This document shows positions 2,080-14,435 of a DNA stretch of 55,737 bases, piece after piece. The stretch is from an uncultured Bacillota bacterium (GTDB lineage: Bacteria; Bacillota_I; Bacilli_A; ML615J-28; CAG-313). Location of the stretch: positions 1 through 55,737 of the forward strand of contig CAMODB010000005.1 in the NCBI GenBank assembly GCA_946611195.1, in the 5' to 3' direction. Position 1 is the stretch's first letter; each line of letters starts with the position of its first letter. The translations under genes and the position numbers were made by a program. The notes beneath the pieces were generated by a model. The model ran no database searches, was not told the DNA's origin, and saw nothing but the letters and a program-made list of their open reading frames with translations.

Positions 2080-2586
2080 TTATTTTTTTAATAAATTAAT
2101 CATTTTTTCATCTTTTTCATCTAACGCATAGTCAAGAGCAGATGAATTTCTTTCATCAACTAAGGAACGATCAATTCCTAAGTCTAATAATAATTGAGCT
2201 ATATCATAATTAGCATAGACAACTGCTAAATGAAGAGCTGATTGTTCTAATTCACAGCTGATATTAATATCACAACCAGCTTGAACTAATTCTTTAATTA
2301 ATTGAAATCTATTATTTCTTACTGCCAAATGGATTGGCGCATCATATTGATCATTACAGATATCTAAATTAAGACCCATTCTTTTTAAAAAGAGAAAAAG
2401 ACCATTAATATTATATTTAACTATATAATGGGCAATCGTATTGCCTTTTAAGTATTTTGTGTTAATATTAAATCCTTCTTTAACATAAGAACGAATTGTT
2501 CTTTTAAGATAAGCTAAATGATTATTATTATCACTTAAAAGATGAATAAGTTCCTTTAATACTTCTTTTTCTTCTTGTTTAGTCAT
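2080..2586 (-). CDS. Ankyrin repeat protein
   Basis: Repeated ankyrin motifs GNTIAHY, DAPIHLAV, QSALHLAV, SSALDYA. Confidence 0.9.
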   Translation of the reverse strand: MTKQEEKEVLKELIHLLSDNNNHLAYLKRTIRSYVKEGFNINTKYLKGNTIAHYIVKYNINGLFLFLKRMGLNLDICNDQYDAPIHLAVRNNRFQLIKELVQAGCDINISCELEQSALHLAVVYANYDIAQLLLDLGIDRSLVDERNSSALDYALDEKDEKMINLLKK

Positions 2587-5500
2587 TAATAAGTACTTCC
2601 TATCTTTTCTTCTTCATCAACGATATTTTTTATTTCGAGAATAATATCATTGAAGGAATTATATAAATCTTCCATTGAATAGACAAGAACTTTCCAACCC
2701 ATCTTTTTATAGATATTAACATAATATATATAATCATCAGTTAAAGAATAATGTTTATTCTTTCTCTTACCTAAAATGATTATACCAAAACGATCATGGG
2801 GTGTTCTAATGACAATATCAATTAAGCCAGGACCAAGTTTTGGTGAAAGTCCCGCATTAAGTAATGCATCAAAAACATAAGTAATAACACTTCCTTCAAT
2901 ATATGGTTGAAGAGGAGTAACATTAGTTATATAATTAGCGATATCCGTTTCATATTTTTCATTCACTTGTGGTGATTTAGTATTCTTATAAGAAAGATGA
3001 ATCATCTTTTTCGCATTGAAATAATTACGAATATAACGTTTCTTTTCATCTTCTTTTAAATCAATCAGTGCTGGATACCAGACATATAAATCATCACAAT
3101 TACGCGTAGCTTCACTACCAACCATAATTAAATTAATATGATTATCTAAGATTTCCATGGTTTGTTCACCACTATAACTTAAACGAATAATTTCAATTAA
3201 TGATTTATAGATTAAACGTTTATCAATTTCATTAAAGACTAAGATATTGATTTGCGAATTATTGGTTTCAAAATTCATAACCGCTTGTTCAACCATATCT
3301 TTTAAGGTATTATATTTTTCAATACTAATTCGCGAATCAGTATCATAAATATATTGATTGTCTTTGGTAAATTGATTTTGCGCTTCTTGTGATAATGATA
3401 GATATCTCTTCTTAATATGAATTAGATGAGAATCATCAATTCTTTGAATAAAAGTATTAGTAACTGATGATTCAAAATACTGGTCACCAAAGACTAAGAA
3501 TTGTTGATTTTCATTATTCTGTCTGAAGATTTGGGCATATTTATTAGCGGTTGCTAAATGTGCATCATCAACAATAATTGTATCAAAATAAGATAAATCG
3601 CTTAAATTATTTAAAGTATCAATATCTGTTAAGAAGATCTTTTTATATTTAGGAAGTTCTTTTAAATAGGTATCAAAATTATTGAAATCAAAGAAAGGTT
3701 CTTTCTTCTTCTTGGCTTTTCTTGCCATATCATTACAATAATTTCTTAAATCAACGAGATTATTATTACAATAATTTTCTTCACTTTCTAGATAAAAATG
3801 AATATCACTCTCAAGTCGATTAACATTGATACCACTAAAATTCTTTTCTTTTAATTCATTATAAAATAATAACATTGTCGAATATAAATAATTCTCAGCT
3901 AAGTTAGTTTGATATACCCCATCTTGAATCTTTTTCGCAAGATCATCTAATTTATATTTATAGAAGGAATCTAAGATATGTTCAATTTTGAAAACATGGG
4001 ATACTTGATCATAACGTTTAACATATTCATTTAAAGTCTTATCAACATCAACGAAGGAATAATTTTGAATATCCATCTTTCCACCATAAAAACAAGTAGA
4101 GAAAGCTCTTAACGCATTATACCATTCATCGTATAAATCAGTAAATTCTTGGTTATGGCTAATTAATTTTGTAAATAATTTTTCTTCATTGATAAGCTTT
4201 AAGATATCAATTTTACCACTCATGCGTTTCATGAATTTTAAGAAGTGCGCAACAGTTTGTCCTATTTCTACTACATTAGTATCAAATTCTTTAAAGGAGG
4301 AACCAAATAATTCTTTGAAAGTACGAGAATTGTTTTCAAATTCTTTTAAATTTTCTAAATATGTTTTATCTACTTCAATGATTAATTTCACATCGAAAGT
4401 ATTTATTACAGATTTGTTTTTAAAATACGAAATTAAATTGTTTCTTGATTGAATAACTCTTTCAAAATAGGGAACACTTGATTTAATATTTCTAACGATG
4501 CCTATAAAATGATTATCTTCAAATGTTAAATTATAAATAGCTAATTTACCTAAGATTTGTTTACCTTCTTCTTTTAAAGAATGAATGGTTTTACAAACAT
4601 TCAACATATTTTTAAGACGATTTTGTTCATCAATTTCATTGATAAAAGTAGATAAGCATAAGCTTTCATAACTTGAAATACTTGAAATAAATTTTAAAAA
4701 GCCTAAATAATTTTTTAAAACATATTCATTTAATTTTCTTAAATGTAAATTAGTAGGTAATAATTCAACAATTTCTTTACTGTATTTGTTATATAAGCGA
4801 ATATCTTCCATTAAGTCTTTAAGATCTTTTTTATCTTTTCTTAAATTCTTTTTGTCAATTCTTTTCTTTAAGATTTTTAAATAATTATTAGTTGAAAGAA
4901 TATTTGCTAATTCTTCGATATCCGCATCTTCAATATCATAATATTGATTAATATTCTTTAATAATTCATCGGCTTCAAGTATTTTATTATTTAATTCTTT
5001 ATATTTTTTAACCATTCCAAGTGGTGATATTGCGTATAAATTAAGCCATGATTCATCAATATTATATTTCTCAAATAAATCAATTAATTTATCCATAAAG
5101 ATAAATTGTTCTTTATTCGGTTCGCTGAATTTAAAATATTGTTTTGCTTTATCATAAGTCATGCTTGAAGATTCAATCCAAGTATTAATTTGCTTCACTA
5201 AATTATCGAAGGTTGGATTAGATGATAATAATAAATCGACATATTTATTATCTTCACTATCTTCATCATTTAATTTATAATGGCCATGACAAATAACTTT
5301 TAAATCTTTTTCACTGCTTCCGGCAACATAATCTTCACAAGCATTTTCTTTATACCATTCTAAGGAATTATAATTAAGGTCTATTTCTTTGGATAAGATA
5401 TCTAAATATTCATTAGATTTTTCTTTAAAGCCATTATCAATCCAACAAGAGATAGGTTTAACTCTTTCAAAAGATAATAATTGTTCAGTTAAATGATTGA

Positions 5501-6884
5501 AGTCCGCAATATCGACTATTTTATTTAAACCGACTTCTTTACAAAAATCATTTAAAATTGATACTAATTTTTCATTAACGGCATAATAATTAGCTGTTCT
5601 TTCAATAATTTCATTAACCTTAGGAGCAGTAGGGGAAGAAAGAAGAGTTGACCAATAATTAGATGTAAATGGATCAACAAAACTAAATTCATATTCGATT
5701 TCTTTTAAGCTTTTATAAATGAATTCAACTTCTTCTATTTCAAGTTTACTTGATGCATCGATGATGTTATCATCACCTTTTTGTTTCATACAAGTTAATT
5801 TTTCAATAATATAACTATATGGATAACCATGATATTTATAATCAAAGATAGCTTCTTCACTAGCTAAAGAATCAATAGTTTTAAAATCAAAATCGGGTTT
5901 TTTAGTTAATAATTCAATATCGCCAGCAAATTTTAAATGATGAGAATTATTAATTTCACAAACTAAATTATATAAGCCTAAACGATATAAATCTTTTCTC
6001 AGACAATTTATATTAACAATATCATGATTTAGATATAATACTTTCTTACCATTAGCTACTAAATCAGCTATGATATTTAAAATAGTTAAGGTTTTACCAG
6101 TACCTACTCGACCATCAACACCAAAACTTTTACCTAAATGAGCAGTATAAATAAGATGTTTTTGTTCAATATTCGTTGGTGTTATTGCTTTACAATTAGT
6201 AAAGAATTGGCGAAGTAAACTAATATCATTATATTCATTAATTGAGCCTTGATGATCAAAAGCATTATTGGGAATTACTAAATCGGAATATTCAATTTCC
6301 ATTTTGGTTAGGAAATTAGATGTTGATACGACTAAATTAAAATCATTAATTAATTTTAAACAAATATTATCAATATCATCTACTCTTTGAATCTTATAAT
6401 CCATTAAAGAATTTAAATATATTAAGGCATTTTGATTTAAGATATTATTGTTTTCCGCATATTTCTTAAATACGACATTAAAGGATGGAGCAGCACTCAT
6501 ATAAACTAAATTATCTTTTAAATCGATAGTAATTGGAAGTAAAATAATTGGTGCATATTTTTCCGTTTCAATTTCATCAAGATAACGAATTGTTCCACAA
6601 GTAATCACGATTTTAATCGATGAGTTGTGCGCAAAAAATTCATAAAGATAATTAATTTGATAATTAACTTCTTTATTATCTTGATTATATAATTGACCAA
6701 CACCATCTATTAAAATTTTTTCATCGAATAAATCTGTTAATTTTTTTACTCCACCTTGAAGTAAATCATCAATAACTTGAAAAGGAATTGTTCCTACTTC
6801 AATATAGTATTCACTATCAAGAATATTTAGTAAATGTGTGTTTTTTGATCTAATGTTATAAGTAGTAGTAAAATTTCTGCTCAT
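2586..6884 (-). CDS. DUF4011-like / SF1 (UPF1-like) helicase / C-terminal Vsr-MTES_1575-like nuclease fusion, degenerate
   Basis: YAPIILLPITI (DUF4011-like). Walker A GRVGTGKT in GKSF..G..GTGK.TI.NIIA...A.GKKVL context. Walker B-like IIVDDAH, GDQ. C-terminal IDIVI...GW nuclease-like tail. Long helical insert between Walker A and B. Confidence 0.7.
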   Translation of the reverse strand: MSRNFTTTYNIRSKNTHLLNILDSEYYIEVGTIPFQVIDDLLQGGVKKLTDLFDEKILIDGVGQLYNQDNKEVNYQINYLYEFFAHNSSIKIVITCGTIRYLDEIETEKYAPIILLPITIDLKDNLVYMSAAPSFNVVFKKYAENNNILNQNALIYLNSLMDYKIQRVDDIDNICLKLINDFNLVVSTSNFLTKMEIEYSDLVIPNNAFDHQGSINEYNDISLLRQFFTNCKAITPTNIEQKHLIYTAHLGKSFGVDGRVGTGKTLTILNIIADLVANGKKVLYLNHDIVNINCLRKDLYRLGLYNLVCEINNSHHLKFAGDIELLTKKPDFDFKTIDSLASEEAIFDYKYHGYPYSYIIEKLTCMKQKGDDNIIDASSKLEIEEVEFIYKSLKEIEYEFSFVDPFTSNYWSTLLSSPTAPKVNEIIERTANYYAVNEKLVSILNDFCKEVGLNKIVDIADFNHLTEQLLSFERVKPISCWIDNGFKEKSNEYLDILSKEIDLNYNSLEWYKENACEDYVAGSSEKDLKVICHGHYKLNDEDSEDNKYVDLLLSSNPTFDNLVKQINTWIESSSMTYDKAKQYFKFSEPNKEQFIFMDKLIDLFEKYNIDESWLNLYAISPLGMVKKYKELNNKILEADELLKNINQYYDIEDADIEELANILSTNNYLKILKKRIDKKNLRKDKKDLKDLMEDIRLYNKYSKEIVELLPTNLHLRKLNEYVLKNYLGFLKFISSISSYESLCLSTFINEIDEQNRLKNMLNVCKTIHSLKEEGKQILGKLAIYNLTFEDNHFIGIVRNIKSSVPYFERVIQSRNNLISYFKNKSVINTFDVKLIIEVDKTYLENLKEFENNSRTFKELFGSSFKEFDTNVVEIGQTVAHFLKFMKRMSGKIDILKLINEEKLFTKLISHNQEFTDLYDEWYNALRAFSTCFYGGKMDIQNYSFVDVDKTLNEYVKRYDQVSHVFKIEHILDSFYKYKLDDLAKKIQDGVYQTNLAENYLYSTMLLFYNELKEKNFSGINVNRLESDIHFYLESEENYCNNNLVDLRNYCNDMARKAKKKKEPFFDFNNFDTYLKELPKYKKIFLTDIDTLNNLSDLSYFDTIIVDDAHLATANKYAQIFRQNNENQQFLVFGDQYFESSVTNTFIQRIDDSHLIHIKKRYLSLSQEAQNQFTKDNQYIYDTDSRISIEKYNTLKDMVEQAVMNFETNNSQINILVFNEIDKRLIYKSLIEIIRLSYSGEQTMEILDNHINLIMVGSEATRNCDDLYVWYPALIDLKEDEKKRYIRNYFNAKKMIHLSYKNTKSPQVNEKYETDIANYITNVTPLQPYIEGSVITYVFDALLNAGLSPKLGPGLIDIVIRTPHDRFGIIILGKRKNKHYSLTDDYIYYVNIYKKMGWKVLVYSMEDLYNSFNDIILEIKNIVDEEEKIGSTY

Positions 6885-12622: not shown

Positions 12623-12645
12623 AAAGGCCTCTACTGAGGCCTTTT
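12622..12645. terminator. Intrinsic terminator
   Basis: aaaaggcctc-tact-gaggcctttt. Confidence 0.85.
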
Positions 12646-12774
12646 ATTAATTCAAAATATCATAATAATATCTTAGTGCTTTATCGTAAGTTTTGTAAAT
12701 AACACATATTTCTTTTATCTTTATTTTTTAAATCATTTAATGGTACTATGATTATTGATGCTTCTCACTTTAAT

Positions 12775-14088
12775 TTATACAAACATAATAAAATATATAG
12801 GGTAATAATTTATCTTCCCTTTTTTTGTTACTTCTCTTTCATTACTAAAAACATATCCTTTTGACATTTTATAATTCTGGTCTAACAATAATTTCGGTAA
12901 TGCTCTAAAATTTTTATAATCTTTCCCAGATTTGATTTCTATTGGGAGAACATTCAATGACTCATAATCATCGACCAAATAATCTACTTCGCCGACTTTT
13001 TTTCTATCATAGTAATATAAATTATGTCCATGACATTTTAATTCTTCAGCGACAACCGTTTCATATACCGCTCCAAGATTGATTCCTGTAGTATCATCTA
13101 ATAAAGCATTTATATTGTTCTTATATAAAATGTTTGTTAATAAGCCAACATCATTCATATATAGTTTAATCAAATTCTTACTACTAGATTGAACTAGAGG
13201 ATATTTAGGTTCACTAACTGCTTTTGTATCTAGAGCAATTCCAGAGTAAATTAAATATTCGAATTCATTAGTATATTTAGTAAATCTAGCATCATCAATA
13301 TTTTCAATATTTTTATACTGTATTCTCTTGACTTTATTTTCGATATTAGATGGTATCATATCATAAATTCTTTTTATTATTAATTTATGTTCTTTATCAT
13401 ACTTTGACGCATCATTTGCATAAAAATTTATTATGTCTTTTTGAATTTCGCGAATTTTAATAACATTTTTACTTTCAATATAACTCTTTACTGCATCAGG
13501 CATACCACCAACATATAAATATGTTTTAAATAAATATAATATTTTTTTGTGTAATGCTTCATCTAATGATTCACCATTTATAAAACATTTTCTCATATGT
13601 TCAATTACTAGTTTGCCAACAGAGTTTGCAATTAAAAATTCTTCAAAATCCATAGGATACATCTTTTTTTCAATTATTGAACCCATAGGAGTTAAAGTAG
13701 TATTGGATAAAGCTATTCCTAATTCGGATCCGCTACATATATATTTATATTTGTTATCTTCCCTTAAAGGTTTTAATAATGTTAACAACTGTGGATATTC
13801 TTGAATCTCATCTATAAAAATAATAGTGTTGTCTCTTTCTTTTAATTTGTCACCAGCAACTACACTCACCTCAAGATAAAACTTTTCAATTGTATTAACG
13901 TCAGCAAATAATTGATTACCCACTTTATCATTTGCCATATTTAGTTCTATATAGTTTTCAAAATGTTTTTTAGCTAGTTCTCTAATTATATATGATTTCC
14001 CTACTTGTCTAGCTCCATCTATGCACAATATTTTTTCTTCATTACCAGTTAAATACTCTTCAATATACTTAGATATTTTTCTATACAT
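12775..14088 (-). CDS. AAA_14 ATPase with DUF4143 C-terminal PD-(D/E)xK nuclease-like domain
   Basis: GARQVGKS Walker A, IFIDEIQ Walker B, CSGS, KLYMNDVGLL, GAVYETVV, EVDY...PIEIKSG. GGAGG SD. Confidence 0.9.
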   Translation of the reverse strand: MYRKISKYIEEYLTGNEEKILCIDGARQVGKSYIIRELAKKHFENYIELNMANDKVGNQLFADVNTIEKFYLEVSVVAGDKLKERDNTIIFIDEIQEYPQLLTLLKPLREDNKYKYICSGSELGIALSNTTLTPMGSIIEKKMYPMDFEEFLIANSVGKLVIEHMRKCFINGESLDEALHKKILYLFKTYLYVGGMPDAVKSYIESKNVIKIREIQKDIINFYANDASKYDKEHKLIIKRIYDMIPSNIENKVKRIQYKNIENIDDARFTKYTNEFEYLIYSGIALDTKAVSEPKYPLVQSSSKNLIKLYMNDVGLLTNILYKNNINALLDDTTGINLGAVYETVVAEELKCHGHNLYYYDRKKVGEVDYLVDDYESLNVLPIEIKSGKDYKNFRALPKLLLDQNYKMSKGYVFSNEREVTKKGKINYYPIYFIMFV

Positions 14089-14118
14089 TGCACACCTCCG
14101 CTTTTCTAACTATATTAT

Positions 14119-14307
14119 ATACTATTTTTTACGCTTTTCCAACTTTTTTGCACACTGTTTTTTACGTTTTTCCAACTTTTTTGCATACTGTTTTTTACGC
14201 TTTTCCAACTTTTTTGCACACTGTTTTTTACGTTTTTCCAACTTTTTTGCATACTGTTTTTTACGCTTTTCCAACTTTTTTACATATTGTTTTTTACGCT
14301 TTTCCAA
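14119..14307. repeat. Tandem repeat, 33-bp unit x about 5.7, alternating variants give a 66-bp higher-order unit
   Basis: Units start at 14119, 14152, 14185, 14218, 14251, 14284. Consensus a(t/c)actgttttttacg(c/t)ttttccaacttttttgc. No unique spacers. Confidence 0.97.
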
Positions 14308-14352
14308 TAAAATACATTTATAAAAAGAATTATTAATTACAAATTATATAAA

Positions 14353-14397
14353 AAAGCATCATAAAGTTGAAATATATTATTCAACTTATGGTGCTTT
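14353..14397. terminator. Hairpin terminator downstream of the GHL10 gene
   Basis: aaagcatcataaagttgaa ... ttcaacttatggtgcttt, flanked by A and T runs. Confidence 0.7.
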
Positions 14398-14435
14398 ATT
14401 TTTTAATTATATAATCATCTATAGAAAGTTAATTA

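Follow-up and report, generated by a model that had tools for sequence, protein, structure and literature searches.

Direct repeats on or near the promoter of the binder's own gene, where binding brings about autorepression, are a feature of plasmid iterons and their Rep initiators (P1 incC-repA, F, R6K and pPS10). The gene for Orc1/Cdc6 also adjoins the sites of its product, and cooperatively bound sites some 31–33 bp apart are known from NrdR boxes and from Ss-LrpB, which acts on its own promoter and autoregulates. Here we describe a comparable arrangement in a contig of an uncultured Bacillota bacterium (GenBank assembly GCA_946611195.1, contig CAMODB010000005.1, positions 1–55,737; this whole stretch of 55,737 nucleotides is called the window), where an array of seven 33-bp units precedes, and runs into the promoter and ribosome-binding site of, a gene for an AAA_14-DUF4143 ATPase-nuclease of the candidate defence family PDC-S01. 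Comparison of the locus with its homologues suggests that the array serves the gene's own product as an autoregulatory operator, a reading to which we assign a probability of roughly 0.68. The features on which it draws are the following.

12775–14088, minus strand: AAA_14 + DUF4143 gene, 437 amino acids, PADLOC PDC-S01
14099–14307, minus strand: array of seven 33-bp units, in gene-sense order A' A B A B P S
14297–14307, 14264–14274, 14231–14241, 14198–14208, 14165–14175 and 14132–14142, minus strand: boxes 1–6, each TTGGAAAAGCG or TTGGAAAAACG
14099–14109, minus strand: unit S, the last box, TTAGAAAAGCG, placed near +1 of the predicted transcript and continuing without a gap into the Shine-Dalgarno (SD) sequence
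14143–14307, minus strand: five distal units (B A B A A'), without a −10; the closest relatives have one unit here
14132–14142, minus strand: promoter box (unit P), in which TTGGAA at 14137–14142 serves as the −35
14114–14119, minus strand: −10 hexamer TATAAT, within the unit P spacer and 17 nt downstream of the −35
14095–14099, minus strand: SD GGAGG (CCTCC on the plus strand), 6 nt before the ATG (14086–14088)

With plasmid iterons this locus shares head-to-tail repeats, phasing by whole helical turns, lineage-private sequences, a position on or beside the promoter of its own gene and an expandable copy number. It departs from them in its step, which is 33 bp against about 22 bp; in its protein, an AAA+/nuclease fusion that matches AAA_14 and DUF4143 only and no Rep family, whereas iteron Rep proteins have a WH1-WH2 architecture; and in its setting, a chromosomal accessory cassette in which no replication genes or signs of an origin are seen. 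An earlier sequence-only reading of this DNA had drawn a loose analogy to initiator-plus-repeat origins, and that analogy is one of resemblance, as nothing points to origin function. As in archaeal Orc1/Cdc6 (PDB 2QBY, 2V1U), the predicted structure of the protein combines an AAA+ core, a helical lid and a putative DNA-reading module, and the gene adjoins its presumed sites; the template modelling scores (TM-scores) of these neighbours and of PAB2304 are low (0.26–0.44). For the Orc1/Cdc6 order of an AAA+ domain and then a winged-helix DNA-binding domain, Foldseek gives a probability of 1.0 at TM-scores of only 0.26–0.31, and the putative DNA-binding segment did not fold when modelled in isolation. 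The protein has no sequence homology to any solved chain and, unlike Orc1/Cdc6, carries a nuclease-like domain, and while origin recognition box elements are inverted around an unwinding element, the boxes here are phased direct repeats in one orientation. NrdR and Ss-LrpB likewise have repeated sites about three turns apart over the promoter, but those sites are palindromes for dimers of small regulators, in contrast to the asymmetric, head-to-tail sites proposed here for a 50-kDa ATPase-nuclease. The array works partly like iterons, Orc1/Cdc6 boxes and three-turn regulators and belongs to none of these classes; what is new is the class of protein that an array of the operator or iteron kind here accompanies, and this window is one expanded instance. 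PDC-S01 is reported to rank fourth among prokaryotic defence candidates by frequency and to be found more often than any other single defence locus in rumen genomes, with a candidate anti-phage activity that awaits experimental validation (PMC12988326, PMC13356809). No mention of upstream repeats, DNA sequence specificity, autoregulation, a DNA partner or a mechanism was found in the DUF4143/PDC-S01 literature searched.

Tandem Repeats Finder reports the array (14099–14307) with a period of 33, 6.3 copies, 90% matches and a score of 334, which makes it the top tandem repeat of the window and the third by score in the 982-kb genome, where the two higher-scoring arrays look coding. The phased 33-bp array that had been proposed upstream of the AAA-DUF4143 gene therefore stands, with seven boxes that lie head to tail in one orientation and in exact 33-bp register in the sense of the gene (minus strand), and the degenerate copy placed in register with it (14098 against 14131) was correctly read. 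Each unit consists of a box of about 16 bp (TTGGAAAAGCG plus an A/T tract) and a spacer of about 17 bp, and the box itself of a shared GAAAA core, three to five lineage-private bases (GCG here) and the A/T tract. The five distal units follow the pattern TTGGAAAA(G/A)CGTAAAAAACAGT(A/G)TGCAAAAAAG, with types A and B alternating, and the promoter unit P is TTGGAAAAGCGTAAAAAATAGTATATAATATAG. All six copies of the core GGAAAARCG that the window contains lie inside the array, against an expectation of 0.42 copies from shuffles. Since a step of 33 bp is close to three helical turns, successive boxes would face nearly the same side of the DNA. Neither a match of the array in Rfam nor a stable RNA fold (folding z = +0.47) was obtained. 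A clustered regularly interspaced short palindromic repeat (CRISPR) array was considered and rejected, the spacers being about 17 nt long and near-identical and cas genes being absent among the scanned neighbours.

On the strand of the gene, TTGGAA-17-TATAAT is the sole sigma-70-like promoter in the upstream region to score 10/12. The TATAAT named in the sequence-only reading is present, although it lies 2 nt away from the position then given (14112–14117). The accompanying idea that repeat units make up the expression signals agrees with what we find both here and in relatives, in which one box contains the −35 and another adjoins the SD. Throughout the clade of the window the last box starts 19–28 nt before the ATG and abuts the SD, while the penultimate box holds the −35 and has TATAAT in the spacer of its unit; the canonical layout is thus one of three boxes, a distal one, one containing the −35 and one at about +1 abutting the SD. 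Two boxes thereby bracket the −10 and the predicted start site, which is the geometry of repressor sites. Tandem promoters were rejected as an explanation because the extra units have no −10, and a phase-variable promoter repeat because the extra units lie upstream of the −35 and leave the promoter unit unchanged. A repeat peptide was considered as well: a minus-strand open reading frame (ORF) at 14122–14307 would give 61 amino acids, (LEKRKKQYAKK)n, in a frame that is open and that a step of 33 bp, or 11 codons, preserves. This frame begins with TTG, lacks an SD, stops within the promoter unit and is broken in relatives (for example by a TGA in the first spacer of locus L043), the spacers are unconserved across loci, and such open frames are expected in stop-poor, A-rich repeats, all of which leaves a coding function scarcely credible.

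The sequence-only reading had suggested searching the upstream regions of homologues for repeats. We fetched 80 homologue loci (about 53–90% identity) from rumen and gut Acholeplasmatales/Anaeroplasmataceae-like Bacilli, Erysipelotrichaceae, Bacteroidales, Treponema and Flexilinea, and scored 75 of them for the best direct-repeat period in the 200 nt before the start codon. This period was exactly 33 bp in 70 of the 75, and also in 22 of 27 more distant paralogue loci of the relatives (30–78% identity), three more of which had a period of 32 bp. Among 281 clean control upstreams, 222 had no repeat and period 33 was outside the six commonest; a first control set had given 17/338, most of these being divergent genes that share the same intergenic region or further members of the family. 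Within the units of 73 loci GAAAA is invariant, partly owing to the way in which the units were anchored, although only two loci lacked it. Positions +5 to +9 are 80–98% identical within a locus and variable between loci, and these private bases are followed by a T/A tract and then by about seven unconserved spacer positions of 24–39% identity. Two boxes are present in 12 of the 73 loci, three in 47, four in 11 and five in two, with seven in the window only. The family itself is patchy and multi-copy in relatives (25/41 genomes, with up to 12 copies). In its Bacteroidales members the promoter grammar differs and the 33-bp phasing is kept, which argues that the boxes are not simply reiterated −35 hexamers.

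Two of these loci are unusual in other respects. At L058, from an Anaeroplasmataceae metagenome-assembled genome (MAG), the array and the first ~25 codons (2085–2283) lie about 1.7 kb upstream of the remainder of the gene (4013–5250), which suggests an insertion into its 5' end. At L044 (~1500–1620) about nine tandem 12-bp units (ATTATTTGCAAC) stand directly upstream of the two boxes of the homologue.

What reads the boxes can be approached from the company they keep. A search of the window's own genome (65% complete) for a possible regulon found the TTGGAAAAGCG 11-mer nowhere else. Clusters of TTGGAAAAGCG occur only beside cognate genes, four copies in genome G000 and four at 33-bp steps in G001, upstream of a 78%-identical homologue, and there is a single copy upstream of a 69%-identical homologue in G008; the other matches among 40 relatives are singletons at the rate of a reversed control pattern. 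Paralogues within one genome carry different boxes (loci L014 and L033 of G025; G000). Homologous loci are alike at the DNA level from a point inside the array to one no more than about 10 nt from the stop codon. As only the array and the ORF are conserved between loci, the sole candidate reader that travels with the boxes is the encoded protein. Within that protein the private bases are tracked by residue 266, which lies in the loop before helix 269–281, as follows.

Residue 266 = D: triplet after GAAAA is GCG in 24/25
Residue 266 = G: GTG, GTC or ATG in 29/29 with an assigned box
Residue 266 = W: CGC or CGT in 11/11
Residue 266 = N: CCG or CTG in 4/5
Residue 266 = K: CTA in 2/2

Among 395 variable columns, residue 266 comes first in mutual information and also in a co-change score that takes the tree into account (FastTree + Fitch); this score and an independent set of loci were added because phylogeny confounds simple mutual information. 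Of the seven changes at residue 266, five coincide with a change of box class on the same branch, out of ten box-class changes in total, and four of the best ten columns (266, 268, 269 and 270) lie within residues 263–281 (hypergeometric p = 3e-4 for a segment chosen post hoc). The independent loci agree in 11 of 11 cases, with D accompanying (G/C)CG in 6/6 and G accompanying GT(G/C) in 5/5. The covariation between repeat and protein that had been anticipated is therefore seen, the variable bases changing with lineage and following residue 266, and this correspondence, upheld in independent loci, is one contribution of the window. Together with the repeats of the homologues it supports the earlier proposal of an iteron-like operator for the gene's own product, with binding inferred from sequence. 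It is highly probable that the boxes are the encoded protein's own sites, whatever their role.

The same observations bear on the idea that a host factor reads the boxes, for example a nucleoid protein, or RNA polymerase, whose sigma or alpha subunit would act on repeated copies of a −35 or UP-like element. The shared core TTGNAAAA does resemble a −35 hexamer with an A-tract, and A/T tracts lie beside every box. There is, however, always one box at the SD, past the −10, the extra units lack a −10 of their own, and Bacteroidales retain the phasing under another promoter grammar; the private bases, moreover, differ among paralogues of the same genome and follow a residue of the encoded protein. 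A host reader is thus very improbable.

The 437-residue protein matches AAA_14 (PF13173; residues 18–152, 90.4 bits against a Pfam cut-off of 27) and DUF4143 (PF13635; residues 226–388, 88.9 bits against a cut-off of 28.1), the family corresponding to COG1373, and along its full length (residues 1–437) the PADLOC PDC-S01 model PDLC04792 (E = 5.5e-167); none of the NCBIfam models matches it. Its Walker A motif is GARQVGKS (residues 25–32) and its Walker B motif IFIDEIQ (residues 90–96). G25, Q28, G30, K31, D93, E94, E343, D369 and K386 are invariant in 73 sequences, and E384 is kept in 90% or more of them. The AlphaFold2 model, for which 73 homologues were used (predicted local distance difference test score, pLDDT, 91.3; predicted TM-score 0.89) comprises an AAA+ core of residues 1–155, a helical region with a helix-loop-helix at 259–281 and a β hairpin at 285–311, and an α-β-β-β-α-β core at 339–415, the layout expected of a PD-(D/E)xK nuclease. 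DUF4143 is classed with the PD-(D/E)xK fold (PMC3424549). By their position in the model, E343, D369 and E384-x-K386 are the putative nuclease residues, and the helix-loop-helix at 259–281 is a putative DNA-reading segment with D266 as its specificity residue. The top Foldseek neighbour is the Pyrococcus abyssi Walker ATPase PAB2304 (2QEN), followed by, among others, DNA-bound Orc1/Cdc6, ORC subunits and MuB, at TM-scores that are low overall (0.23–0.44). A search of PDB for a solved homologue by sequence profile returned only chance matches.

Taken as an autoregulatory operator, the array would function as follows. One protein would bind each box through the helix-loop-helix at 259–281, with residue 266 reading the second private base, such that a protein with D266 would prefer GAAAAGCG and one with G at this position GAAAAGTG. 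Monomers would be set head to tail on boxes three turns apart and make contact through their AAA+ domains, and occupation of the −35 and +1/SD boxes would shut off the promoter. Binding would be cooperative and dependent on ATP. Self-repression of this kind would keep a potentially toxic ATPase-nuclease low and self-limited, and the control would travel with the gene on transfer. The distal part would have grown from one to five units in 66-bp steps, gaining binding sites and no promoters; the extra units may tighten or buffer control, or may be neutral. An array of its own sites would account for a gene that travels as a self-contained unit, and the conserved, lineage-private site offers a biochemical handle, since it defines a DNA ligand, points to a residue that would read it and predicts that the gene represses itself.

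Several points weigh against this reading. The DNA-binding segment was assigned from the topology of the full-length model only: the isolated segment 228–318 did not fold (AlphaFold2 pLDDT 50), Pfam includes the putative segment in DUF4143, and the sequence search gave no solved homologue. The covariation draws on about ten box switches on the tree, and the segment 263–281 was picked after the data had been seen. At about 112 Å, the 33-bp step is a wide gap for 50-kDa monomers to bridge by direct contact. That the nuclease residues are intact suggests that repression is not all the protein does with DNA. The same genome also has arrays that lack an intact gene (contigs C16, C1 and C20). The copy number, finally, comes from a short-read MAG assembly that is 65% complete, and could be misestimated.

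The gene and its array form a unit that can be delimited by comparison with a congeneric genome, G001, as set out here with its flanking signals.

12623–14435, minus strand: 1.8-kb segment missing from the equivalent GHL10/orf173 site of G001
14347–14398, minus strand: hairpin and T-run, terminator of the upstream GHL10 gene, read from the sequence and absent from the list of the promoter/terminator scan
12623–12652, strand not assigned: GC-rich hairpin aaaaaggcctctactgaggcctttt, between the convergent orf173 and ATPase genes, read from the sequence

In G001, GHL10 and orf173-thymidine kinase-deaminase have the same order and orientation, and about 188 bp separate the convergent stop codons of GHL10 and orf173, compared with 1,813 bp in the window. 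The array and the ORF are an accessory cassette, and this empty-site comparison is a second contribution of the window. Of the two hairpin terminators that flank the inserted segment, that at 14347–14398 is predicted to insulate the cassette from GHL10 read-through, and that at 12623–12652 is likely to be a two-way terminator. At the cassette we found no terminal inverted repeats or target duplications, and in the window no downstream or inverted boxes of the kind that would resemble transposon ends. None of the neighbouring genes of the window lies within 4 kb of a homologue at about 105 loci. The family appears in 61 of 72,556 plasmid records and in 14 phage records, all but one of the latter being unannotated 'Bacteriophage sp.' contigs from human faeces.

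These data have to be set against the possibility that regulation is secondary and that the array is the docking or 'home' platform of a resting ATPase-nuclease, released or activated on infection, or else a site nicked in cis to copy or move the cassette. The conserved module consists of the array and the ORF and nothing more, its surroundings differ from genome to genome, and in the congener its site is empty. This would suit such a role, as would the invariant nuclease residues, the modelled likeness of the fold to Orc1/Cdc6 and MuB, and arrays that exceed the needs of repression and persist without genes. The boxes, however, lie on one side of the gene only, with none downstream and neither terminal inverted repeats nor target duplications found; their positions are tied to the −35 and +1/SD across phyla, as for an operator; and the family is rare on plasmids and phages. 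We consider it unlikely that the array is also, or instead, a platform or cis site, although this is the main rival reading. A wider and equally unlikely proposition is that DUF4143/PDC-S01 proteins might be sequence-programmable, Orc1/Cdc6-like ATPase-nucleases, each with its own array as native DNA partner, which would be operator and also the resting platform or 'home mark' of an abundant immune sensor, or as the cis site of cassette spread, and with a residue-266 code (D-C, G-T, W-CG). If this were true, the residue-to-base code could be re-engineered.

The third contribution of the window is the largest expansion of the array in its clade, seven boxes against the usual three. The closest relatives, L037 (90%), L125 (91%) and L124, have three boxes each, each in a different genomic context. 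In Joint Genome Institute (JGI) metagenomes the exact 33-mer had no match, and a looser SD-box pattern yielded two three-box relatives. Where these relatives have one distal unit the window has five, whose extra spacers are near-identical and alternate between types A and B, pointing to a recent expansion by 66-bp duplication steps; sequence comparison thus indicates that the seven boxes are a lineage-specific expansion. Signatures of 66 bp have arisen independently in L052, L055, L061, L101 and L054. One may ask whether only the three proximal boxes are functional, the four extra units being a neutral, minisatellite-type expansion by unequal recombination or an over-extension in assembly. The three boxes of L037, L124 and L125, the restriction of seven boxes to this one among 73 loci, the recent origin of the extra units implied by their spacers and the short-read, 65%-complete MAG from which they come would all fit this explanation. 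The independent recurrence of 66-bp-signature expansions in other lineages and the intact boxes of the extra units speak against it; the only other assembly record of the locus has the same seven units too, but represents essentially the same contig. On balance a neutral or artefactual origin is quite unlikely.

Around the cassette lie genes for an HflX-like GTPase, Dus, an alanine symporter, a deaminase, thymidine kinase and orf173, together with a GHL10 glycosidase-like protein, a CDF transporter and permeases, so that the gene sits among housekeeping genes and outside any defence island. The GC content of the gene matches that of its flanks in the window (26% against 27–28%). At several host loci it is 5–13 points under the flanks (27% against 34–40% at L039; 38.5% against 48–52% at L101), which in those hosts is consistent with recent horizontal acquisition. 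Elsewhere in the window, a 1,432-amino-acid ORF (2586–6884, minus strand) has as its sole Pfam match a weak ResIII helicase motif near residue 1100.

The same genome contains three more AAA_14 + DUF4143-type genes, on contigs C9, C13 and C1, each of which has, in place of direct boxes, a palindrome or inverted repeat of its own that lies after the −10 and before the SD, and further non-coding 32–33-bp arrays, among them the three given here.

C9:32874–34136 (locus L007:1360–1450): gene of 27% identity, with an inverted repeat AATGCGCCATAAA ... TTTATGGCGCATT just upstream of the SD
C1:96109: AAA_14 gene with its −10 and SD separated by two adjoining palindromes, CCGAAATGccATTTCGG and CCGAAATGcaATTTCG
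C13:1164: AAA_14 gene with an inverted repeat TTATCGTTTG ... CAAACGATAA at the promoter
C20:1546–1640: 33-bp × 2.9 array (TTTGTACTAAATTCGGAGCGAGTTTTTATGG), abutting a truncated internal AAA_14 fragment (...LILFDEIQEYPRARLSFKNFAIDG, then a stop)
C16:20012–20159: non-coding 33-bp × 4.5 array upstream of tmk (thymidylate kinase), with no adjacent family gene
C1:52821–52935: non-coding 33-bp × 3.5 array between tuf and a TatD-like gene, with no adjacent family gene

From its sequence the C20 locus looks like a decayed cassette that has lost the start of its gene. For the C16 box, a search of 40 relatives gave scattered single matches only and no clustered match. Since these arrays stand in the same genome without an intact gene, arrays can persist, or act, without one, which suggests that they can outlive their gene.

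Repeats of a slightly shorter step were also noted. The same 32-bp × 2.5 array (TTGCATTTTCGTGATAAA) and the start of the gene that follows it are found at C13:27921–28001 and, reverse-complemented, at C3:86–166; as these positions are the end of C13 and the start of C3, they represent an overlap of contig ends in which the gene is cut off. At C4:36849–36929 three direct repeats with a 32-bp step (CATTTTGACA...) lie upstream of a gene of 160 amino acids, the N-terminus of which reads by eye as an XRE-type helix-turn-helix, so that in this organism operator-like repeats phased by three turns also occur at genes outside the DUF4143 family.

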